In this document: in pieces, positions 1,919-4,204 of the stretch
Layout of the letters: each line of letters opens with the position of its first letter
Numbering within the stretch: the stretch's first letter is position 1
IMG/VR virus record: IMGVR_UViG_2671180338_000015
Direction: 5' to 3' (one strand)
DNA from: a virus
Lineage: Duplodnaviria > Heunggongvirae > Uroviricota > Caudoviricetes
Length of the DNA stretch: 7,498 nt
The notes under the pieces: generated by a model
Told to the model about the DNA's origin: nothing
Databases searched by the model: none
Seen by the model: the letters and a program-made list of their open reading frames with translations, nothing else
Translations under genes and position numbers: made by a program

Positions 1919-2073
1919 TAGACTGGCCCCCTGAATCTCCAGACAACCAGTATCACTTAAATAAGTGATAGTCTTAATACTAGTTTTTAGACTAGTCATT
2001 GGAGTACAGATGATTGATGTCTTAGGGCCGGAGAAACGCAGACGGCGTACCACACAGGAAAAGATCGCAATTG
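1919..2073 (+). mobile_element. IS2 left end fragment (IRL plus first about 21 codons of orfA), cut off by the IS21-family insertion
   Basis: Sequence from TAGACTGGCCCCCTGAATCTCCAGACAACC... through the ATG at 2010 ([21 protein letters not shown]) matches my recollection of the IS2 left end and InsC/OrfA N-terminus. Homology stops near 2074. Confidence 0.7.
2010..2073 (+). pseudogene. IS2 orfA (InsC-like transposase regulator), 5' fragment only
   Basis: GGAG at 2001..2004, ATG at 2010, translation [21 protein letters not shown], then interrupted by the inserted element. Confidence 0.65.
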
Positions 2074-2132
2074 TGTCAACGCCACGATGTTTGACCGTTA
2101 TTTGCCATTTTCATGCCCGCTAAATACTTTCG

Positions 2133-2930
2133 TTACTGATGCTGTCCGCTTTCCACCATTTCATCATCACTGATTGGCGTTGTGTTTTTGGTCAGCACTC
2201 CAGCTTTACGTTTCTCTTTTAACCGGTAACTCTCTCCTTTGATATTCAGCGTGGTTGAGTGATGTAGCAGCCGATCCAGGATCGCTGTTGCCAGTACGTG
2301 ATCTCCGAACATTTCTCCCCAGTCTGCGAACCCTTTGTTTGACGTCAGTATGATGCTCGCTTTTTCATATCGACGGTTCAGTAGCCGGAAGAACAGACTG
2401 GCTTCCTCTCTGTTCATCGGCAGATAGCCTATTTCATCCAGGATCAACACCCGGGCATAACTCAGTTGCTGTAGCTGACGCTCCAGCCGGTTTTCCTGTT
2501 TCGCTTTCATCAGTGTCGCGATCAGTCTGTCCAGTGGCATAAACAGTACCCGATGTCCCGCATCCACCGCTTTCACGCCAAGAGCTATGGCCAGATGAGT
2601 TTTTCCGACACCAGGAGGGCCCAGCAGGATCACGTTTTCGCTGCGCTCCACGAACGCCAGACCAGCCAGTTCCCGGACAACCTTACGGTCGATGCCCGGC
2701 TGGAAGGTAAAGTCGAACTGCTCCAGCGTTTTGACCCACGGCAGACGAGCCTGCTTCAGCCTGGACTCCATACCGCGCTGATGCCTGCCGTTCCATTCCT
2801 GCTGTAGCGCCATGCACAGGAACTCCCGGTAGTTCAGCTCTTTTTTAGCTGCCTGTTCCAGCAGGCTTTCAACGTGATAACTCAGATGCTCCATTTTCAG
2901 GCGACTCAGCAGGACTTCCAGTTCATGCAT
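2133..2930 (-). CDS. istB: IstB, IS21-family ATP-binding helper protein (Walker A GPPGVGKT)
   Basis: ORF track 2133..2933 (GTG at 2933, ATG at 2930). Has the [12 protein letters not shown]-loop and a DEIGY Walker B-like motif. Size equals IS21 IstB. Confidence 0.85.
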
Positions 2931-4102
2931 CACAACAGCTCCTCATAGGCACTCAGTGGTCGATGTTCCACCTGACTGACCTGCTGCCAGAGCGGGGCGT
3001 GATGCTCCGGCACTGTCTGCCAGCCAGACGATGCTGAACAGAGGCGATGTGAGGCCACCAGTTTCTCATTACTGTAGATCCGCAACTCGTCATCCAGCGA
3101 TATTCGTATCGATACCGGCTGACCACACAGCGCTTCGGGAACGCTGTAACGATTACCACCAACCTCGATATAGCTGTCCCAGGACACATGGCGGATATCG
3201 AAGTAACTGGTATCGAAGTCTGTATCCGGTAACGGCTGCAGATGTTCCTGCTCCAGCGCGAAGCGCTGTTCCGGCGTTTCTTTGAACTGGCGAAGCTCCC
3301 GTTTGTCAGCCACATCGGCTATCCATTGCTCCAGTTGTTGATTGACATGAGTGAAGCTGTCGAACCTGCGGTACCGGACGAAGAAGTTCTCCTTGAGGTA
3401 TTTCACCATCCGCTCAACCTTACCTTTTGTTCTGGCCCTGCGTGGACGGCATGCCCGTGGCAGGAAGTTATAGTGGTCAGCCAGCAACAGGAATCCGGAG
3501 TTGAACACGACTTTCCCGTTGTTATTCTTCAGCACCGCAGCCTTCTGGTTATCAACCAGCACCGTTTTCACACAACCACCGAAGTAGCGGAAGGCGCGAA
3601 CCAGTGATTCGTAGGTATGCTCAGCATCCTGTTTTGGTGCGGCGAAGACATGGAAGCTGCGGGAGAACCCCAGCGTATTAACCGCAAAGTTAACTTTGCA
3701 CCGTTGCCCGGCAACCTCCACCTCAACTTCGCCCCAGTCATGCTGGAGCTGGTATCCAGGCTGAGTTTCGAAGCGAACTGTTCTTTTTGACGGACGCATT
3801 TTACGTTTGGGCTGGATGTAGTAACGCAGCATGGAACGTCCGCCCGTATAACCCATTGCCTTAATCTCCGCGAAGATAACCTCGCTATTCCAGACATTCT
3901 CTGCCAGGCGCATGTCGATGTAATCCATAAACGGTTTCAGCTTAACCATTTTGTGGCGGGTCTTTCTGGCTGGCGGTTCAGGGTATTTGAGGTAGCGTCT
4001 GACCGTCCGTTCAGAGCAACCAATCTGAGTCGCAATATCGACGATGTACGCGCCCTGCTGGCGCATTTGCTTTATCATGTAAAAGTCCTCTCTGCTCAGC
4101 AT
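2930..4102 (-). CDS. istA: IstA, IS21-family transposase (N-terminal HTH, DDE-type catalytic domain)
   Basis: ORF track 2930..4102, 390 aa. N-terminus [24 protein letters not shown]... is typical of IstA; stop overlaps the istB start. Confidence 0.85.
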
Positions 4103-4193
4103 GTTGATGTCCTTTCTGGTGTGAGAACCTTAAGGAAACAACATGTTGGGTGGAGCGGACAATCCAAATGGCGAATTACCGTCTTATATCACT

Positions 4194-4204
4194 NNNNNNN
4201 NNNN
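4194..4204. other. Run of 11 N: scaffold or assembly gap of unknown true length
   Basis: Literal n characters in the sequence. Lies exactly at an IS terminus and inside a rusA copy. Confidence 0.98.

Follow-up and report, generated by a model that had tools for sequence, protein, structure and literature searches.

The stretch of DNA analysed here, referred to as the window, is the IMG/VR record IMGVR_UViG_2671180338_000015, which corresponds to the whole of the draft record CXBJ01000219.1 (GCA_001257935.1; 7498 bp). It carries the left end of the insertion sequence (IS) IS2, interrupted by an IS21-like element that runs into a scaffold gap, and on the other side of this gap the sequence resumes within the prophage gene rusA. 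The source organism is inferred to be Shigella sonnei from the neighbouring accession prefixes CXBN, CXBR and CXBV, under which S. sonnei isolates from the Holt 2012 collection are recorded (PMC5447701); the isolates of this collection were sequenced with reads of about 59 nucleotides (nt) (PMC7373316). Comparison with finished chromosomes indicates that the nested insertion is real, and it suggests that the gap is probably a false join made during assembly, by which two prophage remnants situated far apart on the chromosome were placed next to each other.

Organisation of the locus

To the left of the gap, the 3' end of a gene for a DnaB-like replicative helicase of a prophage (124 nt, 1795-1918, minus strand) is cut by nt 1-155 of IS2 (1919-2073, plus strand), which comprise the left inverted repeat as well as codons 1-21 of orfA (ATG at 2010). 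These are followed by nt 1-2120 of the IS21-like element (2074-4193, minus strand) with its right inverted repeat TGTCAACGCCA (2074-2084) and the genes istB (2133-2933) and istA (2930-4102), both on the minus strand. The gap itself is a run of 11 N (4194-4204, without a strand) that was left unclosed in the scaffold. To its right lie the first 211 nt (70 codons) of a rusA gene (4205-4415, minus strand), contiguous with a DUF968 gene (4416-5474, minus strand). Finished chromosomes were reached by look-ups of the DUF968 protein and of the protein encoded by an 85-aa open reading frame (ORF; 1541-1798, minus strand) next to the helicase fragment. Two loci were found in this way, of which locus A was seen on ten finished chromosomes and locus B on seven.

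The nested insertion sequences

IS2A of Escherichia coli K-12 (1331 bp) aligns with its nt 1-155 to positions 1919-2073 with two mismatches (98% identity), in agreement with the first-pass annotation of the window, which had placed about 155 bp of IS2 homology at this point. BLAST carries the alignment on to IS2 nt 159, and with this query no further match to IS2 occurs anywhere in the window, so that the remainder of the element is indeed not found beyond the gap, where rusA sequence runs from 4205. IS2 in the window is therefore incomplete, and the combination of orfA, orfB and right inverted repeat that would mark a complete copy is not present. The element is bordered by a target-site duplication of 5 bp, GTCCG, which forms the last 5 nt of the helicase fragment (1914-1918) and recurs on the far side of IS2 in all seven finished copies of locus B, where GTCCG and then TTATAAAAACG, the continuation of the helicase gene, come after the right end of IS2. 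Flanking duplications, for which the first-pass annotation had recommended a search, thus exist on both sides of IS2. The predicted junction between the IS2 right end and the helicase gene gave no match in viral contigs and was later found in the finished chromosomes by way of the 85-aa ORF protein (orf85).

An uninterrupted form of the helicase gene is present in E. coli FDAARGOS_944 (NZ_CP065613.1, coding sequence 8396-9430). The prophage segment at 8396-11054 of the same record is 99.8% identical, is free of the IS2/IS21 nest and contains an IS600 at a different point of that helicase gene. In the finished copies of locus B (L018-L024 and L027, at about 6490-6533), 38 nt of helicase sequence lie beyond the right end of IS2 and are followed by IS600, and at least three insertion sequences cut the replication region of the prophage there.

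The element that interrupts IS2 near 2074 was correctly attributed to the IS21 family in the first-pass annotation, since a full IS21-like copy of 2130 bp on an E. coli plasmid (L001), flanked by the 4-bp duplication GTTG, matches window positions 2074-4193 with its nt 1-2120 at 100% identity. The DDE transposase IstA (390 aa) reaches 284 bits against NF033546 (cut-off 160) and has a Pfam rve domain on record, and its helper, the AAA+ ATPase IstB (265 aa), reaches 302 bits against NF038214 (cut-off 200). The gene istB lies directly downstream of istA, with the end of istA (2930) overlapping the start of istB (2933). RefSeq labels identical copies “IS21-like element IS21 family”, and IS21 is among the insertion sequences listed for S. 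sonnei 53G (PMC7373316). The assignment draws on L001, the NCBIfam models and the RefSeq labels.

Full copies of this element have the terminal repeats TGTCA(A/G)CGCCA and, in all 13 copies examined, continue at the left terminus with ATATCACT followed by GGCGCTGACA. Duplications of 4 bp border nine of the ten copies in one chromosome and two of the three in E. coli plasmids. Of the two terminal repeats, only the right one is visible in the window; the left one falls inside the N run and is deleted at the finished locus, where the expected ATTG copy of the target duplication would lie inside a deleted segment of 106 bp. The N run begins 10 nt before the left terminus of the element, which corrects the first-pass annotation, according to which the gap coincided exactly with the IS terminus.

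The junction between IS2 and the IS21-like element is not a product of assembly. A 39-mer across it recurs exactly in two IMG/VR contigs and in seven finished chromosomes, which shows that the junction is real and inherited. An exact search of contigs representing one genome per species gave no match, presumably because Shigella has no separate representative in that collection, and the junction in one piece was found in no complete E. coli genome.

Structure of the locus in finished genomes

Loci A and B are two separate prophage remnants. Locus A is identical on its ten finished chromosomes, which include CP000038.1 (S. sonnei Ss046); it adjoins ompW and has the order hok, rem, DUF968, intact rusA (126 aa) and Q (273 aa). 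The other finished chromosomes, including those with locus B, are taken to be those of S. sonnei on account of sequence identity and, for some, because locus A is also present on them. Both loci are present in CP104423.1 and in CBDDMI010000001.1, where they lie on the same strand at a distance of 671 kb and 666 kb, respectively.

Locus B begins with IS600, 38 nt of helicase sequence and GTCCG, followed by IS2 from nt 1331 down to nt 203, IS21 from nt 2075 down to nt 1, IS2 from nt 155 down to nt 1, GTCCG, the 3' end of the helicase gene, the 85-aa ORF, rusA (124 aa) and Q (284 aa). All seven finished copies have the same junction between IS2 nt 155 and IS21 as the window, and window positions 2074-4145 (IS21 nt 1-2072) are collinear with the finished nested copy, with a single mismatch at the polymorphic site 3475. 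At the other end of the element, again in all seven copies, IS21 nt 2072 (ending in AACAACATG) joins IS2 at about nt 203 through the 7-nt microhomology CAACATG, and the rest of IS2 (nt 203-1331, 1129 bp), including an intact right end, stands directly beyond IS21. The part of IS2 that is absent from this scaffold is thus most likely present in the genome, judging from these relatives. The nest and both of its elements are already known, as they are present in finished public genomes of S. sonnei.

This arrangement shows three successive events. In the S. sonnei lineage, IS2 first transposed into the 3' part of the helicase gene of a lambdoid prophage with duplication of GTCCG. Its nt 155 and 156 were then separated by transposition of the IS21-like element, which is oriented opposite to IS2. 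Finally, a deletion of 106 bp at CAACATG removed the left terminus of IS21 (55 nt), the expected 4-nt duplication and nt 156-202 of IS2. This deletion left both elements crippled, IS21 without its left end and IS2 without orfA. It had gone unnoticed in the first-pass annotation, as had the two features of the window described next, namely the generic IS21 sequence at 4146-4193 and the chimeric left part (1-1396).

Mosaic composition of the window

Base-by-base comparison of the window with the finished loci A and B divides it into blocks of different origin. Positions 1-663, a second partial copy that consists of the 5' part of Q and the 3' part of rusA of remnant B (minus strand), match locus B with no mismatches. 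They are followed by a Q segment of remnant A set into remnant-B sequence (653-1182, minus strand), which has no mismatches to locus A and 35 to locus B. From 1127 to 4145 the window corresponds to locus B at every position other than 1240, where the base is of A type, and the polymorphic site 3475. The full rusA (1167-1541) and a truncated Q antiterminator gene (640-1170), both on the minus strand, extend across these blocks. The sequence to the right of the gap (4205-5743), including the partial rusA, is that of locus A without a single mismatch, and in locus A the counterparts of positions 1182 and 4205 are just 154 nt apart.

Between these blocks lies a short segment which belongs to neither locus. 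Positions 4146-4193 are nt 2073-2120 of IS21, and this left-end sequence is absent from the locus-B copy in all seven finished genomes. Ten other, intact copies of IS21 in CP104423.1 carry the sequence of 4101-4193 exactly and then continue with GGCGCTGACA. The segment 4146-4193 is thus most likely derived from reads of other, intact IS21 copies.

The change between locus B and locus A falls at 1127-1182 within a 56-nt stretch that is common to both loci, and a second one coincides with an overlap of 11 nt (653-663, TCCGGACAGGC) which is likewise common to both. The join at this 11-nt overlap truncates Q to 176 aa, giving a protein that was seen on no other contig of the public collection. The left part of the window (1-1396) has the appearance of a 733-bp tandem duplication of Q-rusA, in which one copy (1-663) is purely of B type and the other (734-1396) contains an A-type Q. 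Such a duplication is most likely a false gap closure. Position 1240 has an A-type G inside a B-type rusA, the duplicate copy has C at the corresponding position 507, and the locus-B copy on another IMG/VR scaffold (L004) also has G; the G at 1240 may be either a polymorphism or the result of consensus mixing of the two loci.

Origin of the scaffold gap

The two sequences that flank the N run are not neighbours in CP104423.1 or in CBDDMI010000001.1. As they are 666-671 kb apart in these finished chromosomes, their adjacency across the gap is most likely a false join. We consider it probable that positions 4194-4204 mark a false scaffold join between remnant B on the left and remnant A on the right, in other words an assembly artefact, given the sequences compared here. 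The first-pass annotation was right not to trust the gene order across the gap. The two explanations which it put forward, a gap hiding more than 1 kb or the removal of the rest of IS2 by a deletion or inversion, do not provide the best fit, as the finished genomes favour a false join.

Two sister scaffolds from related isolates keep the order of the window, with an IS edge of locus B, N and then locus A, and differ in the edges. In the IMG/VR scaffold L004 the left edge is IS21 nt 193, followed by a gap of 1 N and a locus-A contig that runs through an intact rusA into Q. L082 (IMGVR_UViG_2690316276_000009) has no IS21 at all; its locus-B side breaks off at IS2 nt 821, a single N again stands for the gap, and here too Q-rusA sequence is duplicated. 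The recurrence of the same join with different edges suggests a cause that is common to these assemblies. At 3447-4267 of L082, IS2 nt 1-821 stand uninterrupted at the same helicase site with no IS21, which may mean either an isolate without the nested IS21 or an assembler that followed the majority of intact IS2 copies. The 1-N gaps of the sister scaffolds must hide at least 1.9 kb. The stated gap size of the window is accordingly not to be trusted, as the first-pass annotation had warned, and the idea that the N run masks 11 true nucleotides was rejected as the principal explanation. A third rusA allele behind the contig end at 4205, which would fit k = 33 and a 10-nt trim, was also considered, and no such allele occurs in S. 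sonnei-like contigs.

A plausible route to the false join is offered by the assembly procedure in use for isolates of this species. The Sanger pipeline, consisting of Velvet, SSPACE and GapFiller, was applied to 299 S. sonnei assemblies and runs GapFiller with 120 iterations, a procedure that has been called greedy and prone to false joins (PMC5320598). GapFiller trims 10 nt from each gap edge, extends base by base according to the majority of reads and closes a gap on an overlap of at least 10 nt (PMC3446322). IS21 would have been present at least 11 times in this genome, together with numerous copies of IS2 and IS600 and with two remnants that have rusA-Q stretches in common. The locus-B contig may have been extended through IS21 on reads of all copies, with reads of the other copies swamping the locus-specific deletion junction, until it stalled at the terminus where more than ten flanks diverge. 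It would then have been joined to the locus-A contig with a nominal gap, through read pairs of locus A with mates in the common rusA-Q stretch; if this stretch was represented only on the locus-B contig, an apparent overlap and hence a minimal gap would result. The same process may also lie behind the change between the A and B alleles at 1127-1182 and the join across 11 nt at 653-663. In this reconstruction, a trim of 10 nt after the stall would account for the edge at IS21 nt 2120 and for the 11 N (1 + 10).

Several points weigh against an artefact. The false join is deduced from the genomes of relatives and not from the reads of this strain, and the use of the Sanger pipeline is deduced from the neighbouring prefixes CXBN, CXBR and CXBV. 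The end of the locus-A contig at 4205 is not at an A/B repeat boundary, and the other gap edge is no more than 10 nt from an IS terminus; since an edge near an IS terminus and a contig end outside a repeat are combined here, a true IS insertion would look alike. Insertion sites of IS21 that are particular to single strains are known in S. sonnei (S3 Table, PMC7373316). Furthermore, the 10 terminal nt of IS21 are the same in all copies and were nevertheless not refilled. That the adjacency of IS21 and rusA is real, either as a private recent insertion of IS21 into the rusA on the ompW side or as a recombination between the remnants, is nonetheless unlikely.

Among the ways in which the adjacency could be real, the one that survives best is a second, strain-specific copy of IS21 in the rusA of remnant A at about 4204/4205, which the assembler collapsed with the nested copy. 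Both junctions would then be real and belong to two different copies of IS21, with a gap of about 11 nt (10 nt of IS21 and 1 more), and the predicted junction would read TGACA joined to (T)CACGGCGG. The details of the gap agree well with this: the edge is 10 nt from the terminus, 11 N as 10 + 1 keep the rusA frame, the IS21 left-end sequence at 4146-4193 is intact, no A/B repeat boundary falls at 4205, and the scaffold has IS21 between Q and rusA of remnant A, as expected for an insertion. Rare strain-specific IS21 sites also occur among S. sonnei isolates (PMC7373316), and an IS21 site in rusA was sought in the ISMapper tables of that study, where no gene name matched and the coordinates refer to an IS-free reference that could not be mapped. 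What makes a second copy distinctly improbable is that the scaffold order recurs in L004 and L082 with edges (IS21 nt 193 and IS2 nt 821) that do not coincide with an IS21 terminus, and that 10 finished chromosomes and 80 viral contigs have no interruption of the remnant-A rusA at this site. The direct junction of the IS21 left end with rusA gave no match in viral, genome and metagenome contig collections, and none of 10 predicted RusA-IS21 fusion proteins was found in a collection of 15 billion proteins, which is a weak test as short-read contigs break at insertion sequences anyway. In addition, the gap filler would have been expected to close a true junction that lies beside unique sequence.

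A real, large rearrangement between the remnants, such as a duplication of about 670 kb or a translocation, through recombination in the common rusA-Q stretch, or an IS-mediated inversion or deletion, would make the hybrid rusA(B)-Q(A) and the B/A adjacency genuine. The hybrid junction at 1127-1182 is what unequal crossing-over between the direct repeats A and B would be expected to leave, L082 also has a hybrid copy, and large rearrangements do occur, to judge from where locus A is placed on finished chromosomes; in two genomes (L013 and L016), for example, it is flanked by genes which flank locus B elsewhere. A rearrangement accounts neither for the join at the 11-nt overlap nor for the one base of A type at 1240 or the generic sequence of the IS21 end (4146-4193), however, and the hybrid module is seen in none of the 17 finished loci. 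As the truncated Q is confined to this contig, and the presence of unique sequence twice within scaffolds is typical of extension by a gap filler, this explanation is very improbable.

An equally slim chance is given to a collinear gap that hides the undeleted ancestral nest (intact IS21 left end and IS2 nt 156-1331) with remnant A at some distance. This would suit the reading of 4146-4193 as an intact IS21 left end and the uninterrupted IS2 up to nt 821 at the same helicase site in L082, but it conflicts with the deletion in all seven finished copies and with the 38 nt of helicase and IS600, not rusA, that follow IS2 there. In viral and metagenome contigs no match was obtained for the ancestral junction (IS21 end, ATTG and IS2 nt 156), with 0-6 nt allowed between the IS21 end and IS2 nt 156, and the mid-gene start of rusA at 4205 would still need a second event.

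Remaining features of the record

To the right of the DUF968 gene, the window contains a 92-aa ORF (5476-5754), a Rem-family gene (5821-6084) and hok (6302-6514), all on the minus strand, as well as a sok RNA (6452-6627; Rfam RF01794, 112 bits). The hok/sok-type toxin-antisense module, consisting of the hok ORF and the sok RNA, is intact at 6302-6627. A segment of 250 bp (5744-5993), comprising the 5' end of the 92-aa ORF, a spacer and the 3' two-thirds of rem, is present in the window, in CP064376.1 (L014) and in L004 and is absent from nine other finished chromosomes, including that of Ss046. The segment represents an indel that is polymorphic in the species.

At both ends (1-34 and 7467-7498), the record breaks off within a repeat, about 32-34 nt into it. 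On the right this is the terminus of an IS600, which follows at this point in finished genomes, and the left end lies in the Q stretch common to loci A and B. Such ends are consistent with a de Bruijn assembly with k of about 33.

Implications

The locus is of interest chiefly as a caution on data quality. Remnants that are about 670 kb apart are juxtaposed in this record and in at least two of its sister scaffolds in IMG/VR, and the same scaffolds also duplicate unique sequence and include IS sequence of no locus specificity. Conclusions on gene order, prophage boundaries, IS insertion sites or “tandem duplications” drawn from such scaffolds would be misleading. The underlying biology is that of ordinary IS-driven prophage decay, with IS2 in the helicase gene, a nested IS21 and a small crippling deletion. 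If the adjacency of IS21 and rusA were true after all, the scaffold would record ongoing IS21 activity or rearrangement in S. sonnei.

Comparison with known systems

The window resembles known false joins by SSPACE and GapFiller in that the gap is situated at a multi-copy IS and its edge is 10 nt short, which equals the default trim. It further shares with such chimeras the closure on an overlap of 11 nt (the default minimum being 10) and the duplication of unique sequence to either side of the joins. The use of this pipeline for the present record is presumed.

The IS21-like element corresponds to IS21 in its IstA and IstB proteins, which score above the NCBIfam cut-offs, in its terminal repeats, in the length of its full copies (2130 bp) and in the 4-bp duplications. 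It differs from IS21 in that the copy at this site in finished genomes has lost the 55-nt left terminus and is therefore unable to transpose by itself, while the terminus seen in the window consists of generic sequence and N. The IS2 copy agrees with IS2 (IS3 family) of E. coli and Shigella in the left repeat and the first 155 nt, in the GTCCG duplication and, in the finished genomes, in the intact right end. Unlike that element, the copy at the true locus is split by IS21 and lacks nt 156-202, and as its orfA is destroyed, it is unable to make its own transposase.

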